Part shown: positions 2,544 to 30,212 of the stretch, piece after piece
Numbering within the stretch: position 1 is the stretch's first letter
Layout: each line of letters opens with the position of its first letter
Source: a phage
Assembly (NCBI GenBank): GCA_027337125.1
Contig: GCA_027337125.1_3057.1
Length of the DNA: 64,000 nt
Direction: 5' to 3' (one strand)
The notes under the pieces: generated by a model
Told to the model about the DNA's origin: nothing
The model's input: only the letters and a program-made list of their open reading frames with translations
Database searches by the model: none
Translations under genes and position numbers: made by a program

Positions 2544-2616
2544 TGGGAATTAGCCAAGTTGGTAAGGCATAGCACTTTGACTGCTAGATGCAAAGGTTCG
2601 AGTCCTTTATTCCCAG
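2544..2616 (+). tRNA. tRNA-Gln (anticodon TTG)
   Basis: Cloverleaf read by eye: acceptor TGGGAAT/ATTCCCA, T-arm GGTTCGAGTCC, anticodon loop CTTTGAC. Confidence 0.85.
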
Positions 2617-2617
2617 C

Positions 2618-2704
2618 GCGAGAATGGTCAAATTGGTAAAGGCACAGCACTTAAAATGCTGCGGAATGATTTCCTTGTGGGTTCGAGTCCCACTTCTCGT
2701 ACCA
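2618..2704 (+). tRNA. tRNA-Leu (anticodon TAA), long variable arm, CCA encoded
   Basis: Acceptor GCGAGAA/TTCTCGT, anticodon loop CTTAAAA, T-arm GGTTCGAGTCC, 3' ACCA. Confidence 0.85.
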
Positions 2705-2710
2705 AAGTTT

Positions 2711-2782
<72 letters not shown>

Positions 2783-2794
2783 AAATTTAATTTA

Positions 2795-2868
2795 CTCCGT
2801 GTAGCTCAGTTTGGTAGAGCGTCTGCTTTGGGAGCAGAATGTCGCAGGTTCAAATCCTGCCACGGAGA
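2795..2868 (+). tRNA. tRNA-Pro (anticodon TGG)
   Basis: Acceptor CTCCGTG/CACGGAG, anticodon loop TTTGGGA, T-arm GGTTCAAATCC. Confidence 0.85.
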
Positions 2869-2870
2869 CT

Positions 2871-2957
2871 GGAGGCGTGGCAGAGTGGTTTAATGCACCG
2901 GTCTTGAAAACCGGCAGTCGCTCCGGCGACTCATAGGTTCAAATCCTATCGCCTCCG
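2871..2957 (+). tRNA. tRNA-Ser (anticodon TGA), long variable arm
   Basis: Acceptor GGAGGCG/CGCCTCC, anticodon loop CTTGAAA, T-arm GGTTCAAATCC. Confidence 0.85.
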
Positions 2958-2964
2958 TAATTTC

Positions 2965-3037
2965 GCTGATTTAGCTCAGTAGGTAGAGCACCTCACTTGT
3001 AATGAGGATGTCGGCGGTTCGATTCCGTCAATCAGCA
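2965..3037 (+). tRNA. tRNA-Thr (anticodon TGT)
   Basis: Acceptor GCTGATT/AATCAGC, anticodon loop CTTGTAA, T-arm GGTTCGATTCC. Confidence 0.85.
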
Positions 3038-3043
3038 TATCAA

Positions 3044-3115
3044 GGCCCTGTAGCTGGAAGGTTCAAGCAAGCGACTCATAATCGCCAGATGGTGGTTCAA
3101 TTCCACCCAGGGCCA
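3044..3115 (+). tRNA. tRNA-Ile (anticodon CAT, lysidine-type as in T4)
   Basis: Acceptor GGCCCTG/CAGGGCC, anticodon loop TCATAAT, T-arm GGTTCAATTCC. Confidence 0.8.
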
Positions 3116-3156
3116 TATTTTGAGAACATAAATACTCTTAGAAATAGGAGATATTT

Positions 3157-3822
3157 ATGTTCCATTACATTTATAAAATAACAAATAAAATTAATAATAA
3201 AATCTATATAGGCGCTCATTCTACCGAAAATTTAGATGATGGATATATGGGTTCTGGTAAATTATTAAAAAGAGCCCAAGATAAATATGGTATAGAAAAT
3301 TTTTCTAAAGAAATATTAGAGTTCTTTGACGATAAAACCTCTATGTTTGAGTCAGAAAAGAATATTGTGACTGAAGAGTTTTTAAAGCGCCCTGATGTTT
3401 ATAATTTGAAATTAGGTGGTGAAGGTGGTTGGGACCATTTAAACACTAAAGAATATTTGGATAAAAAGAAAGAAGCTTCCTTAAAAGGAGCTGCCGCTTT
3501 TAAAACCAGATTTGAGAACGACCCAGACCTTAAAGAAAAATATCGTAAAATGGGTTCAGAAAGGTTTAAACAGCTTTGGGATAATCCTAAGTATAGAGAG
3601 AAATTTTTAAATACTAAATCTTTCTTGGGTAAGACCCATACTCCTGAAACTATTAATAAAATGAAAGAATCTCACGCCAGAAATAAACACCAACAAGGTG
3701 AAAAGAATTCCCAATTTGGCATGATGTGGATTCATTCATTAGATGAAAAAGTTTCTAAACGTATTAAGAAAACTGACCCAATTCCAGAAGGATGGTTTAA
3801 AGGTCGAAAAATGAAATTTTAA
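3157..3822 (+). CDS. segB: GIY-YIG homing endonuclease SegB-like, inside tRNA cluster
   Basis: N-terminal GIY-YIG motif (IYKITNKINNKIYIGAH); sits between tRNA subclusters as T4 segB does. Confidence 0.8.
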   Translation: MFHYIYKITNKINNKIYIGAHSTENLDDGYMGSGKLLKRAQDKYGIENFSKEILEFFDDKTSMFESEKNIVTEEFLKRPDVYNLKLGGEGGWDHLNTKEYLDKKKEASLKGAAAFKTRFENDPDLKEKYRKMGSERFKQLWDNPKYREKFLNTKSFLGKTHTPETINKMKESHARNKHQQGEKNSQFGMMWIHSLDEKVSKRIKKTDPIPEGWFKGRKMKF

Positions 3823-3825
3823 TTA

Positions 3826-3902
<77 letters not shown>

Positions 3903-4244
3903 GACAAGAAACCGGGTCGCTACCGGTAAGTCGTCGGACTGATGTTCCCTGAGTAAGGAATTGCGTTAATAATCTTTGTGTTTATTGATGCCCTCTTACA
4001 TCACAGCAGAAACGGCGCACCGAATTATCGATTCGAGGAAATATCTTTGCCGTAAGCCGAGTAGCGTTTTTGACGGAACGTTCGGATATGGTCGAGATGT
4101 GGCCTTTTAAAAATATTGAGTAGCGTCAACTACTTAATAACCGGGTTCGAATCCCGGCGTTTCGTACAAACACTTGCCTTAGCAGGTGGAACCCGACAAG
4201 GTTGCCGCAAGGCTTAGCCCCGACCGAAAGGTTGGGGCTTTTTA
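3903..4244 (+). ncRNA. stable small RNAs downstream of tRNA-Arg (T4 species 1/2, rnaC/rnaD-like); boundaries uncertain
   Basis: No ORF; GC-richer structured segment with tRNA-like T-arm (GGTTCGAATCC) ending in hairpin plus T-run; matches T4 rnaC/rnaD position. Confidence 0.45.
4216..4244 (+). terminator. rho-independent terminator closing the tRNA/stable RNA unit
   Basis: AGCCCCGACC-GAAA-GGTTGGGGCT hairpin followed by TTTTT. Confidence 0.55.
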
Positions 4245-4450
4245 GTATCTAGGCCTTTCTGGACCTCTCTAGGCATCATTTAGTTTCTACCCTTTATAAT
4301 ATATTATCTTATCTTTTAATTGTCCCTCCCTGCCCTAGAATTCCCTAAAACTTTTTAAAAATTTTTTCACAAAACTATTTACATCCCTGTTCTTCCATGG
4401 TACTATACAACTATCAACTACTGATACAGAAAAACAACTTGGATAATAAA

Positions 4451-8310: not shown

Positions 8311-8328
8311 AGGCCTATACTTAGGCCT
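8311..8328 (+). terminator. hairpin after internal-protein gene
   Basis: AGGCCT-atactt-AGGCCT palindromic stem followed by ATTT. Confidence 0.35.
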
Positions 8329-8485
8329 ATTTACATTCAAATAACATGGGAACAAGCTGGACCTCATGATTCTGTGAGGGATTCCCGCCAACCTGTAATA
8401 AGGTCGAGCCCAAGTGCGGTAATGGGTAAATACAGAAACGGACAATTCATGCGCCATGGAATGGCCCAAATTTAGAGATAACAAA

Positions 8486-9028
8486 ATGAAAACATTTTTA
8501 ACTGGTCCTTATCTATCCCTGATGAATGCTTTTACACACCATTCTGATGCTAGAGTAGAAGAAATTTGTAATAGTGGATTTTATGTACCTGATTCGCCAC
8601 ATTTATTTAAAGAATACTGCACACTTCGACTAGATGGTGGACGTCAATCCGGTAAATCAACTGCAGTAACTAATTTTGCCGCTAATTGGTTGTATGACGG
8701 TGGAACAGTTATTGTTCTTTCTAATACTTCAGCTTACGCTAAAATTTCTGCGGGCCACATTAAAAAAGAATTTTCACGCTATTCTAATGATGATATTCGA
8801 TTCCGTTTATTTACTGATTCTGTCCGTAGTTTTGTTGGTAATAGAGGTAGCAAGTTCAGAGGTTTATCGCTTTCGCGGATTTTGTATATAATCGATGAGC
8901 CTGTTAAATCTCCTGATATGGATAAAATTTATGATATTCATATTGAAACTGTGCAACACTGCTGCAATAGTAAATGTTGCATTGGTGGTATTACTCGTCC
9001 ACAGTTTTTCGTAATCGGAATGCAATGA
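8486..9028 (+). CDS. small P-loop NTPase (Walker A/B)
   Basis: GGRQSGKST Walker A and ILYIIDE Walker B; start taken at second ATG (MKTFLTG); boundary uncertain. Confidence 0.5.
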   Translation: MKTFLTGPYLSLMNAFTHHSDARVEEICNSGFYVPDSPHLFKEYCTLRLDGGRQSGKSTAVTNFAANWLYDGGTVIVLSNTSAYAKISAGHIKKEFSRYSNDDIRFRLFTDSVRSFVGNRGSKFRGLSLSRILYIIDEPVKSPDMDKIYDIHIETVQHCCNSKCCIGGITRPQFFVIGMQ

Positions 9029-9354
9029 TGACAGACACACAGCTTTTCGAATATCTTTATTTTTCGCCAAAAACTATTAAAAATAAATTGGTGAATCATT
9101 TTGAAATTTTGGCAAATAACAACGTCTTGAGCGAATTTTATCCTAAGCAGTATAAACTACAAAAAGGTGTATTCAAAGGATGTAGAGTTTTGTGTACTGC
9201 TCCTAATGCACGGTTAATGAATAAAATTCCATATTTTACAATGGAATTTATTGATGGACCTTTTAAAGGACTAATTACCCAGAGTTTAATGGCATATGAT
9301 TCTGAGCCATTTTTAATTAAAGAACAATCTTGGATAAATTTATTTTCTAATTGA
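9025..9354 (+). CDS. hypothetical protein
   Basis: In-frame ATG overlapping upstream stop (ATGATGA), 109 aa. Confidence 0.45.
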
Positions 9355-9361
9355 GGTTTAT

Positions 9362-9724
9362 ATGAAAGCATATCAAATTCTTGAAGGCACGCACAAAGGT
9401 ACTATTTATTTTGAAGATGGTATTCAAGCACGAATTATCGTTTCTAAAACCTTTAAAGAGGACTCTTTTGTAGACCCAGAAATTTTCTATGGTTTGCATG
9501 CCCGTGAAATTGAAATTGAGCCACAGCCTACAGTTAAAATTGAAGGTGGTCAGCACCTGAACGTTAACGTTCTGCGTCGTGAAACTCTGGAAGATGCAGT
9601 TAAGCATCCGGAAAAATATCCGCAGCTGACCATCCGTGTCTCCGGTTATGCAGTTCGCTTTAACTCTCTGACTCCGGAACAGCAGCGCGACGTTATCGCT
9701 CGTACCTTTACCGAGAGTTTGTAA
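9362..9724 (+). CDS. autonomous glycyl-radical cofactor GrcA/YfiD-like protein
   Basis: C-terminal 60 aa essentially identical to recalled E. coli GrcA / PflB glycyl-radical domain ([10 protein letters not shown]...[29 protein letters not shown]). Confidence 0.8.
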
Positions 9725-9945
9725 TGGCAAAGATAATTATTGAAGGTTCTAAAGATGTGCTAAATGCTTTCGCCGAATGGTTTAGTAATTCAGGCGAACA
9801 GCAATTTAATGAAGCATGGAACATGGGTGATATTAGTGGAATTTATCCTACGACAGAAATTTCTGTTCAGGGATATGGCATTCATGAACCTATTCGTTTA
9901 GTTGAATATGATTTGGGTACTGGTGAGGAAGTAAAATATGATTGA
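9724..9945 (+). CDS. hypothetical protein
   Basis: 73-aa ORF, TAATG overlap with grcA-like stop. Confidence 0.5.
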   Translation: MAKIIIEGSKDVLNAFAEWFSNSGEQQFNEAWNMGDISGIYPTTEISVQGYGIHEPIRLVEYDLGTGEEVKYD

Positions 9946-25816: not shown

Positions 25817-26290
25817 ATGTTATTGACTGGCAAATTATATAAAGAAGAAAAACAGAAATTTTATGATGCACAAAACGGTAAATGCTTAATTTGCCAACGA
25901 GAATTAAATCCTGATGTTCAAGCTAATCACCTTGACCATGACCATGAATTAAATGGACCGAAAGCTGGAAAGGTACGTGGGTTGCTTTGTAATCTCTGTA
26001 ATGCGGCAGAAGGTCAAATGAAACATAAATTTAATCGTTCTGGCTTAAAAGGACAAGGCGTTGATTATCTTGAATGGTTAGAAAATTTACTTACTTATTT
26101 AAAATCCGATTACACCCAAAATAATATTCACCCTAACTTTGTTGGAGATAAATCAAAGGAATTTTCTCGTTTAGGAAAAGAGGAAATGATGGCCGAGATG
26201 CTTCAAAGAGGATTTGAATATAATGAATCTGACACCAAAACACAGTTAATAGCTTCATTTAAGAAGCAGCTTAGAAAGAGTTTAAAATGA
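25817..26290 (+). CDS. 49: endonuclease VII (Holliday junction resolvase)
   Basis: 157 aa, zinc-binding CLICQ...C and HLDHDHE motifs; matches recalled T4 gp49. Confidence 0.9.
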   Translation: MLLTGKLYKEEKQKFYDAQNGKCLICQRELNPDVQANHLDHDHELNGPKAGKVRGLLCNLCNAAEGQMKHKFNRSGLKGQGVDYLEWLENLLTYLKSDYTQNNIHPNFVGDKSKEFSRLGKEEMMAEMLQRGFEYNESDTKTQLIASFKKQLRKSLK

Positions 26291-27108
26291 ATGTAGTATA
26301 TAAACTATCATTTGTTAATAGAATTAATGCTAAAACCCCGCCATATTATTACATTGGAAGTAAAACTAATTGCACTTTTGATGGAACGAATATTATTGAT
26401 AAAAATGGTAAATTTTATTATTCGTCTTCGTCATCTTCTGAATTTCAAAACGCTCTATTGAAAGAAACGCCGAAAGTTGAAATATTATATTTTCAATTAG
26501 TCGGAGATGAACAAATAACTAGCATTGAAGCTGAATTTCAAAAGAATGTAGAAAAAGATGTATGGAATAAAGAGTATTTTAATTTAGCATATGCTGATGG
26601 CCAATTTACGACATATGGTATTTCTCCTTCTAAAGAAACTAGAGAAAAGCAATCAATAACCATGATTAAAAGAAATCGTAATAAAGGCAAAAATCATGGA
26701 TTTTATGGAAAGCATCATACTAATTTAGCCAGAAAGAAAATATCAGAAGCTTCTAAAAAATACTGGAAAGAAAATCCACATCGTGGATTTTCGCATACAA
26801 AGGAAGCTAAAATTAAAATTGGAATTTCATCTTCTATCAGGCATAAAGGAAGTGGAAATCCGATGTATGGTGTAAAACCTTGGAAAACTCCGAGAGCAAT
26901 TAAATCTGGTACTTGTATATTATGGTTAAAATACGCAGAAATTTTATATGATTATTTAGGTCCAGATTTTAAAAGTAAATCATCTGTTTTTGTGGATTTA
27001 AACTTACCGAAATTTAGAATTGATAATTTCATCAAAAGGTTTAAAATGGGTTGGAACCCATATTTAGACGAAGAATTTCAAAAGGATAAATTAGAATTAT
27101 GTCTTTAG
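26287..27108 (+). CDS. GIY-YIG-type homing endonuclease-like protein
   Basis: VYKLSF...YYIGSK GIY-YIG-like N-terminus, NUMOD-like NHGFYGKHH and GNPMYG motifs; overlaps nrdD start. Confidence 0.6.
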   Translation: MNVVYKLSFVNRINAKTPPYYYIGSKTNCTFDGTNIIDKNGKFYYSSSSSSEFQNALLKETPKVEILYFQLVGDEQITSIEAEFQKNVEKDVWNKEYFNLAYADGQFTTYGISPSKETREKQSITMIKRNRNKGKNHGFYGKHHTNLARKKISEASKKYWKENPHRGFSHTKEAKIKIGISSSIRHKGSGNPMYGVKPWKTPRAIKSGTCILWLKYAEILYDYLGPDFKSKSSVFVDLNLPKFRIDNFIKRFKMGWNPYLDEEFQKDKLELCL

Positions 27109-28916
27109 AGAAAGATGTTTTAAATTTTATTTCAAATAAAGATAAAGAATTAAATACCGAAAATGCCAACAAAGATTCTCGTGTCTTTCCAACAAAAAGA
27201 GATTTAATGGCCGGTATTGTTTCTAAACATATCGCTTGTAGTATTCTTCCAAGCCATATTGTAAATGCTCATAATGCCGGGTTAATTCATTTTCATGATT
27301 TAGATTACAGTATATCATTGCCTTTTACTAATTGTTGTTTAGTAGATTTAAAAGGAATGCTTGAGAACGGATTTAAGCTTGGTAATGCACAGATTGAAAC
27401 TCCTAAATCAATCGGTGTTGCTACTGCAATTATGGCACAAATTACTGCACAGGTTGCTTCCCATCAATACGGCGGAACGACTTTTGCTAATGTAGATAAA
27501 GTACTTTCTCCTTATGTTAAACGCACCTATGCAAAACATATTGAGGATGCAGAAAAATGGCAAATCGCTGATGCGTTAAATTATGCTCAATCTAAAACAG
27601 AAAAAGACGTATACGATGCATTCCAAGCTTATGAATATGAAGTAAATACTCTCTTTAGTTCAAACGGACAAACGCCTTTTGTAACAATTACATTTGGTAC
27701 GGGAACTGACTGGACTGAACGAATGATTCAGAAAGCAATTCTGAAAAATCGTATTAAAGGTCTTGGTCGTGATGGGATAACTCCTATTTTCCCTAAGCTT
27801 GTTATGTTTGTTGAAGAAGGTGTTAATCTTTATAAAGACGATCCGAACTATGATATTAAGCAGCTTGCTTTAGAGTGTGCAAGCAAAAGGATGTATCCTG
27901 ATATTATTTCAGCTAAGAACAATAAAGCTATCACTGGTTCATCTGTTCCTGTTTCTCCAATGGGTTGTCGTAGTTTCTTGAGCATATGGAAAGATTCGAC
28001 TGGCAATGAAATTCTTGATGGACGTAATAATCTCGGTGTTGTAACACTGAATCTTCCTCGTATTGCGTTAGATTCTTATATTGGAACACAGTTCAATGAA
28101 CAGAAATTTACTGAATTATTCAATGAACGAATGGATTTGTGTTTTGAAGCTTTGATGTGTAGAATTAGTTCCTTAAAAGGAGTTAAAGCGACTGTTGCTC
28201 CTATTCTTTACCAAGAAGGCGCATTCGGGGTTCGTCTTAAACCTGATGACGACATAATTGAGTTATTTAAAAACGGTAGAAGTTCAGTGTCTTTAGGATA
28301 CATTGGTATTCACGAATTGAATATTCTTGTCGGTCGTGATATTGGACGAGAAATTTTAACTAAAATGAATGCTCATCTTAAACAGTGGACTGAAAGAACC
28401 GGATTTGCTTTTAGTTTATATTCGACTCCTGCTGAAAACCTTTGTTATCGCTTCTGTAAACTTGATACAGAGAAATATGGAAGTGTAAAAGATGTTACCG
28501 ATAAAGGCTGGTACACTAACAGTTTCCATGTTTCAGTAGAAGAAAATATTACTCCGTTTGAAAAGATTTCTCGTGAAGCTCCATATCATTTCATTGCGAC
28601 AGGTGGTCACATTTCTTATGTTGAACTTCCTGATATGAAAAATAACTTAAAAGGTCTTGAGGCCGTGTGGGATTATGCCGCACAACATTTAGATTATTTT
28701 GGTGTTAATATGCCAGTAGATAAATGTTTTACATGTGGAAGTACCCATGAAATGACTCCTACTGAAAACGGATTTGTTTGTTCTATTTGCGGAGAAACTG
28801 ATCCTAAAAAGATGAACACAATAAGAAGAACGTGTGGTTATTTGGGAAATCCGAACGAACGCGGATTTAATCTCGGTAAAAATAAAGAAATCATGCATAG
28901 GGTTAAACACCAATGA
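27099..28916 (+). CDS. nrdD: anaerobic ribonucleotide reductase NrdD (uninterrupted)
   Basis: 605 aa, C-terminal glycyl-radical motif RTCGYLG and zinc ribbon CFTCG...CSICG. Confidence 0.95.
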   Translation: MSLEKDVLNFISNKDKELNTENANKDSRVFPTKRDLMAGIVSKHIACSILPSHIVNAHNAGLIHFHDLDYSISLPFTNCCLVDLKGMLENGFKLGNAQIETPKSIGVATAIMAQITAQVASHQYGGTTFANVDKVLSPYVKRTYAKHIEDAEKWQIADALNYAQSKTEKDVYDAFQAYEYEVNTLFSSNGQTPFVTITFGTGTDWTERMIQKAILKNRIKGLGRDGITPIFPKLVMFVEEGVNLYKDDPNYDIKQLALECASKRMYPDIISAKNNKAITGSSVPVSPMGCRSFLSIWKDSTGNEILDGRNNLGVVTLNLPRIALDSYIGTQFNEQKFTELFNERMDLCFEALMCRISSLKGVKATVAPILYQEGAFGVRLKPDDDIIELFKNGRSSVSLGYIGIHELNILVGRDIGREILTKMNAHLKQWTERTGFAFSLYSTPAENLCYRFCKLDTEKYGSVKDVTDKGWYTNSFHVSVEENITPFEKISREAPYHFIATGGHISYVELPDMKNNLKGLEAVWDYAAQHLDYFGVNMPVDKCFTCGSTHEMTPTENGFVCSICGETDPKKMNTIRRTCGYLGNPNERGFNLGKNKEIMHRVKHQ

Positions 28917-29752
28917 ATTATGATAGATTTTATCCTTGCGATTTTGTGAATGATAAATTATCTTTAATATTTGAAGAAAATAATGATTTACTATTGTCAT
29001 ATGTTGATTTGATAACAAAAAATTATAATAATCCTAAAATAAAAGGAAAAACGGAAGCACATCACGTGCTTCCCAAATCTATATTTCCTGAATATAAAAC
29101 AGATAAATGGAATATTGTTAATTTGTCATATTATGACCACGCGTTAGCTCATTACTATTTAGCTAAAACAAGTAATAGTAAAATGTGTTATGCCTTTCAT
29201 AGAATGATAAACTCGAATACCGATAGATTTAATACAAATGAATTGGATGAAATTCTTAAATTGTATTCCAGCGAAAAGGAATTATTTCACCGCTCTATGT
29301 CAAAATTATCGAAAAATATATGGAAGGATGACGATTTTAGAAAAAGACATAGAGAACTAACTAAGTTAGCAATGCAAAAACCTGAAGTTAGAAATAAAAC
29401 TTTATTAAATTTGTCAAATGCAATGAAAACTGATGAAGTTAGAAATAAAATTTCCAGGCTAACTAAGTTAGCAATGCAAAAACCTGAAGTAAAAGAAAAA
29501 CATAGAAATTCATTGAAGTTGGCGTATGCAAATCCTGAGGTTATGAAAAGGAAACATCAGCGTCTTCGAGAAAAATATACTCTTAATTTATTTGGCGCAT
29601 ATAAAGATGGTGTTCTTTTAAAAACATTTAATTATATACCAGACGCAGCAAAATATTTTAATATTTCTAGCAAAGGAAATATTTTAAAATGTTTAAATGG
29701 CGAACGTAAAAGTGTTGAAGGCTATAATTGGAAATATATAAATGAATTATGA
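28913..29752 (+). CDS. HNH homing endonuclease (MobC-like) between nrdD and nrdG
   Basis: HNH motif EAHHVLPKS...YDHALAH; tandem NUMOD-like repeats; N-terminus duplicates nrdG start. Confidence 0.75.
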   Translation: MNYDRFYPCDFVNDKLSLIFEENNDLLLSYVDLITKNYNNPKIKGKTEAHHVLPKSIFPEYKTDKWNIVNLSYYDHALAHYYLAKTSNSKMCYAFHRMINSNTDRFNTNELDEILKLYSSEKELFHRSMSKLSKNIWKDDDFRKRHRELTKLAMQKPEVRNKTLLNLSNAMKTDEVRNKISRLTKLAMQKPEVKEKHRNSLKLAYANPEVMKRKHQRLREKYTLNLFGAYKDGVLLKTFNYIPDAAKYFNISSKGNILKCLNGERKSVEGYNWKYINEL

Positions 29753-30212
29753 CAGAATATACCCGTGCTGCTTCGTGAATGGCCCTGGATGCAGGACCGT
29801 TCTTTTCGTTACAGGTTGTTTGCATAAATGTGAAGGGTGTTATAATAAATCAACATGGAATGCTAGAAATGGTATTCCATTCACTGGTGAAACACTAGAA
29901 CAATTGATTGAATGTTTGAATAATGATTATATAGAAGGATTAACTATAACCGGAGGTGACCCTCTTTATCCTGATAACAGAGACGTGATTCACTCTGTGG
30001 TTCAAACTATTAAAAATCTTTATCCCAATAAAAGCATTTGGTTGTGGACAGGATATAAGTTTGAAGATATTAAACAACTAGAAATGCTTAAATATGTTGA
30101 TGTTATTATTGATGGGAAGTATGAGAAAAATCTTCCGACCAAAAAGCTGTGGCGAGGTTCAGATAATCAGCGACTTTGGTCAAATACCGATGGGGTGTGG
30201 AAACATGATTAA
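29742..30212 (+). CDS. nrdG: anaerobic RNR activating enzyme NrdG (radical SAM)
   Basis: 156 aa, cysteine cluster CCFVNGPGCRTVLFVTGCLHKCEGC. Confidence 0.9.
   Translation: MNYDRIYPCCFVNGPGCRTVLFVTGCLHKCEGCYNKSTWNARNGIPFTGETLEQLIECLNNDYIEGLTITGGDPLYPDNRDVIHSVVQTIKNLYPNKSIWLWTGYKFEDIKQLEMLKYVDVIIDGKYEKNLPTKKLWRGSDNQRLWSNTDGVWKHD

Follow-up and report, generated by a model that had tools for sequence, protein, structure and literature searches.

The 120-codon gene at positions 9362 to 9724 of the window, the 64,000-nucleotide stretch of phage DNA analysed here, is an orthologue of gene vs.6 (Y06I) of T4-type phages, and the free-standing glycyl radical domain that it encodes very likely repairs cleaved pyruvate formate-lyase (PFL) of the host. 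The gene is a mosaic, in which a 5′ half of phage type is joined to a 3′ half that is almost letter for letter the grcA gene of E. coli. The vs.6-type gene itself is an already known and biochemically characterised T4 gene, to which the window adds another orthologue.

The gene lies on the plus strand, starts with ATG, and encodes a product of 13.8 kDa (Table 1). The TGA stop codon of the upstream gene vs.7 (9352-9354) overlaps the GAGG Shine-Dalgarno sequence of vs.6, and the stop codon of vs.6 in turn overlaps the ATG of the next gene, vs.5, in the sequence TAATG. The end of the gene also contains the GAGAG ribosome-binding stretch of vs.5 together with its overlapping ATG (9724). No MotA-type middle promoter was found between 2474 and 12174, and a sigma-70 promoter scan upstream of vs.6 gave no convincing sites and nothing above chance. 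An Rfam scan of the window returned the tRNA cluster only, with no match at the vs.6 locus. On the minus strand, a 127-codon open reading frame with a TTG start (9347-9730) covers the entire vs.6 gene; nothing shows it to be more than a mechanical open reading frame opposite a codon-biased gene.

Table 1. Coordinates in the window of the vs.6 gene, its parts, and the genes for the class III ribonucleotide reductase and its activase
Feature	Position	Strand	Remark
GAGG Shine-Dalgarno sequence	9353..9356	+	5 nt 5′ of ATG; read from sequence
vs.6/Y06I-type CDS, phage autonomous glycyl radical cofactor (GrcA-like)	9362..9724	+	120 aa
5′ half, phage-type	9362..9538	+	codons 1-59; GC 0.35
Host-derived tract encoding the glycyl radical domain	9540..9711	+	GC 0.51
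GGT codon of Gly95 in RVSGYAV, radical glycine	9644..9646	+	= GrcA G102 = PFL G734
Gene end	9712..9724	+	third base of ACC codon, then GAG AGT TTG TAA; non-host synonymous codons
nrdD, class III ribonucleotide reductase	27099..28916	+	Pfam NRDD 7.6e-171
nrdG, NrdD activase	29742..30212	+	Fer4_12 1.4e-48

The original prediction described the product as a GrcA/YfiD-like spare-part protein whose C-terminal 60 residues are essentially the glycyl radical domain of PflB and GrcA, and both statements are borne out. The Pfam domain Gly_radical (PF01228) covers residues 61-101 (E=2.8e-18), and BLASTP against E. coli GrcA, the alignment suggested as a check, gave E=9e-52, with residues 61-120 corresponding to GrcA 68-127 and identical at 60 of 60 positions. 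When the protein was compared with PDB sequences by phmmer, YfiD (6owr, 8.6e-42) was the best match, followed by PFL (1h16, 5e-26). Residues 58-120 align with residues 697-759 of PFL, placing G95 on G734; the radical glycine, whose fate on precise alignment had been set beforehand as the refuting test, is thus conserved. The C-terminal glycyl radical domain of PflB (PDB 1H16, 697-759) is colinear with the phage domain and shares its motif, whereas PflB has in addition a barrel and the catalytic Cys418 and Cys419, both of which are missing from the phage protein, a small, free-standing protein whose alignment with PFL is limited to this segment. E. coli GrcA/YfiD (P68066; NMR structure 6OWR) is likewise small and free-standing, with an N-terminal half of about 60 residues followed by the glycyl radical domain, but it has a segment, NSFWLLD, that the phage protein lacks, being 7 residues shorter. 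The genomic contexts also differ: the phage gene sits in an early-gene-like cluster, and E. coli grcA adjoins ung.

T4 vs.6 (Y06I; RefSeq NP_049730) is identical to the window gene at 119 of 120 amino acids and 353 of 363 nucleotides (10 nucleotide differences), occupies the same locus between the same neighbours, and shows the same mosaic with an E. coli grcA 3′ half. The two genes differ at residue 73, which is His in T4 and Arg in the window gene (Arg also in E. coli GrcA), in the codon for Gln64 (the CAG allele in the window, CAA in T4), and in the 3′ end of the host tract, which is shifted by two codons. The gene order vs.8-vs.7-vs.6-vs.5-vs.4-vs.3-regB-vs.1 is the same in the window, RB32, and T4, so that the placement of vs.6 is conserved, with vs.7 before it, vs.5 after it, and regB further downstream. 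A DNA search with the gene gave matches in 757 phage records, mostly from Tequatrovirus and relatives; in 745 of these the match spans at least 80% of the gene, and the closest reach 99.2% nucleotide identity. The protein matches phrog_1209 over its full length (residues 1-120, 1.2e-62), and its length was a constant 120 amino acids in every Tevenvirinae genus sampled and in two further phages of the Straboviridae. The expectation that T4 carries a YfiD homologue and that the gene is conserved is therefore well founded, given a syntenic T4 gene and more than 750 phage records. Among other phages, the GrcA-like genes of Karamvirus, Pseudotevenvirus, Krischvirus RB49, Aeromonas phage 44RR, and T5-like Demerecviridae share the two-part architecture and the conserved domain with vs.6. 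We take Y06I to be the product of vs.6 on the ground that the T4 genome has one GrcA-like gene of fitting size. The RefSeq T4 record names the vs.6 product 'autonomous glycyl radical cofactor GrcA'; elsewhere there is an annotation gap, as PHROGs labels phrog_1209 'unknown function', the NCBIfam GrcA model misses the protein by 17 bits, and many phage copies in GenBank are labelled 'hypothetical protein' or 'pyruvate formate-lyase'.

Several other features of this part of the window were observed in passing. At the head of the same gene order, the vs.8 protein (8456-9028) has a P-loop, GGRQSGKST, and is weakly similar to the ATPase region of the large terminase (phrog_2, 3.5e-6); its own family is phrog_1488, of unknown function in PHROGs. 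The stretch before vs.8 (8311-8455) begins directly 3′ of an internal-protein gene with a terminator-like hairpin (AGGCCTATACTTAGGCCT, then T-rich), which is followed by a 125-nt GC-richer intergenic stretch with the inverted repeat CCTCA...TGAGG; it showed no Rfam match, no E. coli match, and no recognisable promoter. The tRNA cluster consists of eight genes (2544-3902: Gln, Leu, Gly, Pro, Ser, Thr, Met/Ile-CAU, and Arg), as in T4 and RB32. Just downstream of tRNA-Arg, within a GC-rich island (3840-4360), lies a tRNA-like element (4093-4165) that scored 20.8 bits with the Rfam tRNA model, below the cut-off of 29, and has a perfect T-arm, GGTTCGAATCCCGG, at 4144-4157. ARAGORN made no call for this element, and it had no E. 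coli match; it is a candidate for one of the small stable RNAs of T4.

What the protein does in vitro is known from T4. Y06I and E. coli YfiD have been reported as spare parts of about 14 kDa that restore the activity of O2-cleaved PFL in vitro, and the radical on either protein is reported to be installed by the PFL activating enzyme, PFL-AE (Wagner et al. 2001, pmid 11444864, as described in PMC8683613). No spare parts besides these two have been validated, according to Andorfer et al. 2021 (PMC8683613). Repair of oxygen-damaged host PFL, the first of the functions proposed originally, is accordingly what the account in PMC8683613 reports for the 119/120-identical T4 protein. In YfiD, residues 1-60 are disordered and residues 61-127 reproduce the C-terminal fold of PFL, and the N terminus is reported to govern binding and activation rather than catalysis (PMC8683613). 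A 2026 review (PMC13450708) repeats the spare-part account and states that no spare part is known for other glycyl radical enzymes; both reviews leave open that spare parts exist for glycyl radical enzymes other than PFL (PMC8683613, PMC13450708). The gene had also been called functionally underexplored, a description that fits only its in vivo role in infection; no in vivo phenotype of vs.6 was found in the literature searched.

The two halves of the protein differ greatly in their relation to bacterial GrcA. The NCBIfam model TIGR04365 (GrcA equivalog; IPR011140) scored the phage protein at 153.3 bits and E. coli GrcA at 234 bits. The curated equivalog cut-off is 170 bits; under the NCBI rule the phage protein is therefore not an equivalog, and TIGR04365 is still its best-matching family. 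The score falls below the cut-off because the N-terminal half is only 25% identical to that of E. coli GrcA (15 of 59 residues), with which it is colinear, about 7 residues shorter, and shares Q5, K29, D34, R48, and P56; the alignment with the model starts only at residue 20. By comparison, the N-terminal halves of the bacterial proteins share 76% identity from E. coli to Haemophilus. Among phages, the N-terminal half is under purifying selection (dN/dS 0.03-0.28). The phage protein is thus a homologue working like GrcA, but of a diverged phage lineage. It may not behave exactly like GrcA, because the diverged half is the one that matters in YfiD for binding and activation; codons 1-59 are the counterpart of the disordered YfiD region that promotes cPFL binding and activation (PMC8683613). 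Taken further, these observations could mean that the same fold does another job, in which the N-terminal half retargets or re-regulates the domain and modulates formate-lyase activity rather than simply repairing the enzyme; it might, for instance, bind PFL or TdcE in the intact or inactive state, or compete with the GrcA of the host. The low identity of a half that is nevertheless under selection, the score under the equivalog cut-off, and the control of binding and activation by the N terminus of YfiD would all suit such a role. We regard it as unlikely, since rescue of cleaved PFL is reported for T4 Y06I just as for YfiD (as described in PMC8683613) and the N-terminal half is still colinear with GrcA, with the five residues conserved.

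If repair of PFL is the function, we infer a benefit to the phage along the following lines. In a host infected while growing with little or no oxygen, O2 would cleave active PFL at the radical glycine G734. The phage protein would dock on the cleaved enzyme with the help of its N-terminal half, its C-terminal 60 residues would stand in for the lost PFL domain, and host PflA, the PFL activase, would put the radical on Gly95 and so bring PFL activity back. Such repair would sustain the supply of acetyl-CoA/ATP and formate once host gene expression has been shut off by the phage, when new GrcA or PflB could no longer be made by the cell. The formate from repaired PFL would feed the phage NrdD as reductant; class III ribonucleotide reductases use formate in this way, and T4 NrdD has a proposed formate site (PMC4493059). 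The window encodes both NrdD and its activase NrdG on the same strand as vs.6, 17.4 and 20.0 kb downstream, respectively, in agreement with the predicted distance of about 18 kb. NrdD homologues were found in 2,926 phage records, among them those of T4-like and of T5-like phages, two groups in which GrcA-like genes are present as well; this overlap, which is qualitative and not a co-occurrence test, is consistent with the formate link. The proposed chain from PFL repair through formate to phage NrdD predicts a testable effect in anaerobic gut infection. In the window, nrdD is uninterrupted (605 aa) and flanked by two homing-endonuclease-like open reading frames, at 26287-27108 and 28913-29752, the second lying between nrdD and nrdG; one of the two has a NUMOD3 domain (6.5e-7) and the other a weak I-HmuI NUMOD-like match.

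A more direct connection had been suggested as well, namely that the protein serves NrdD. As a spare part for the phage reductase, vs.6 would be activated by NrdG and replace the C terminus of O2-cleaved NrdD. Both are glycyl radical proteins of one genome, and the reviews keep non-PFL spare parts possible (PMC8683613, PMC13450708). However, BLASTP of vs.6 against the NrdD of the window detected no similarity (E=2.4), and the 33 PDB matches, headed by PFL and YfiD, contained no NrdD chain, although a T4 NrdD structure is reported to have been solved (PMC4493059). Moreover, the domain is residue for residue that of GrcA, its DNA comes from host grcA, and vs.6 and nrdD are 17 kb apart in separate gene clusters. 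The suggestion therefore found no support; for want of similarity in both searches we rejected it and regard it as highly improbable, and repair of PFL is the reading that we retain.

The mosaic structure of the gene is seen at the DNA level. In the 3′ half, 171 of 172 nucleotides of the tract are identical to E. coli grcA, and the sole difference, at 9640 (C versus A), is synonymous. The GC content of the tract is 0.51, against a window mean of 0.34 and 0.35 in the 5′ half, and the 5′ half is barely alignable to grcA as DNA. The last four codons of vs.6 are synonymous codons unlike those of the host, and there is no homology to grcA past the stop codon. Over a core of 168 nt, dS between the window and E. 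coli grcA is 0.024 (1 site), whereas E. coli and Citrobacter amalonaticus, which encode an identical protein segment, are separated by a dS of 0.36 (12 synonymous sites), E. coli and K. pneumoniae by 0.52, and E. coli and Salmonella by 1.09. Codon bias combined with protein conservation was rejected as the cause of the DNA identity, as C. amalonaticus shows 12 synonymous differences where the phage shows 1. Likewise, pflB and tdcE were rejected as donors of the 3′ half, grcA being 97% identical at the DNA level and pflB about 80-81%. Some E. coli strains have a grcA with CAA at Gln64, and the RB32 tract is identical to theirs at 167 of 167 positions; the CAG of the window is the alternative allele. 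No Chi site was seen in the tract on reading the sequence. When 5,426 E. coli genomes were searched with the six other GC-rich islands of the window, outside the tRNA cluster, nothing matched, which leaves the vs.6 tract as the one host-like island that this test detected in the window.

The simplest reading of these data is that the 3′ half of a pre-existing phage gene was overwritten by host grcA through homologous recombination, which accounts for its host-like composition. The direction is from host to phage, because the tract has host composition and because bacterial grcA divergence rises by genus as expected, in the order Escherichia, Citrobacter, Klebsiella, and Salmonella. A 3′ half that is literally host DNA might invite the view that vs.6 is a functionless passenger, a recombination-acquired host fragment in frame by chance and with no selected role, and the copy of the Klebsiella phage KPV15 is indeed frameshifted; but an intact reading frame of constant length in hundreds of phages of several genera, the low dN/dS of the N-terminal half, the maintained ribosome-binding sites and translational coupling, and the in vitro activity reported for T4 Y06I (in the account of PMC8683613) make this a very remote prospect.

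The comparison of phage lineages points to overwriting as a recurrent event. Tequatrovirus and Mosigvirus, which infect E. coli, carry E. coli grcA alleles in vs.6. Between their vs.6 genes, the 5′ halves have a dS of 0.6-0.7 and the 3′ halves one of only 0.10-0.16, so that homogenisation of the 3′ halves must postdate the split of the two genera. In the Klebsiella-infecting Jiaodavirus, the phage-type 5′ half is kept, with its first 28 nt unchanged, and the 3′ half is K. pneumoniae grcA (97-98%). The 3′ half of KPV15 is 98.2% identical to K. pneumoniae grcA over 168 nt, the best match of KP01 among 82 bacterial grcA genes is that of K. pneumoniae, and 106 phage records match the Klebsiella-type tract at 95-99%. 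At the protein level, Jiaodavirus copies have L77 and E81, as is typical of Klebsiella. The tract begins, in both lineages, at the onset of phage-host homology (EGGQHLN codons) and ends a few codons short of the stop codon, with 3′ end points that are all different in T4, sb3, the window, RB32, and Jiaodavirus. The retained phage-type end codons coincide with the ribosome-binding stretch of vs.5 (GAGAG or GAGG), which may explain their persistence. Unlike the window gene, the copies of Karamvirus, Pseudotevenvirus, RB49, 44RR, and T5-like phages are without a recent host tract, their 3′ halves being 77-85% identical to any of the 82 bacterial grcA genes. A Salmonella-type tract was not found in phages, the best match reaching 83.8%.

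Some of these records call for comment in their own right. The KPV15 copy of vs.6 (L096 722-1083) lacks one nucleotide in a run of T in its 5′ half, and its annotation shows two short CDSs; either the gene is a pseudogene or the sequence contains an error. The Klebsiella grcA sequences were taken from chromosome-sized or chromosomal pieces that are filed as plasmids in PLSDB (CP125156.1 and LR134122.1), and the K. aerogenes copy of grcA is frameshifted in the assembly. An E. coli-type tract (97-99%) is present in phages whose records name Yersinia, Hafnia, or Pseudomonas as host, and 'Salmonella phage PSE-D1' carries a Klebsiella-type tract (97.1%), so the tract may tell more about the usual hosts than the label of the record.

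Taken together, these observations make it likely that the 3′ half has been overwritten repeatedly by the grcA of the current host, that is, by host-to-phage gene conversion, while the 5′ half was inherited vertically. At least two conversion events are needed, one with E. coli and one with Klebsiella, and there were probably three or more. The alternative to recurrent events is that single conversion events were spread by phage-phage recombination. We found no report of a host-specific conversion of the vs.6 3′ half in the literature searched; older papers may have noted the identity with E. coli, and the Klebsiella parallel relies on recent genomes.

If repeated conversion by the current host is correct, each phage carries in the tract a molecular record of the hosts with which it was recently associated, which could serve as a simple marker of host history. 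It would also offer a natural and tractable assay of host-to-phage recombination and gene flow in phages with hmC-DNA. T4-like phages destroy host DNA and use modified cytosine, and yet they would take up host sequence where homology suffices, with the uptake of host grcA having occurred separately in the E. coli and Klebsiella phage lineages. A known precedent is psbA of cyanophages, in which homologous recombination swaps segments between a host metabolic gene and its phage copy. The case of vs.6 differs from psbA in that exchange is confined to one half of the gene, that the partner is an enterobacterial gene, and that the tract is nearly identical to the gene of the current host species.
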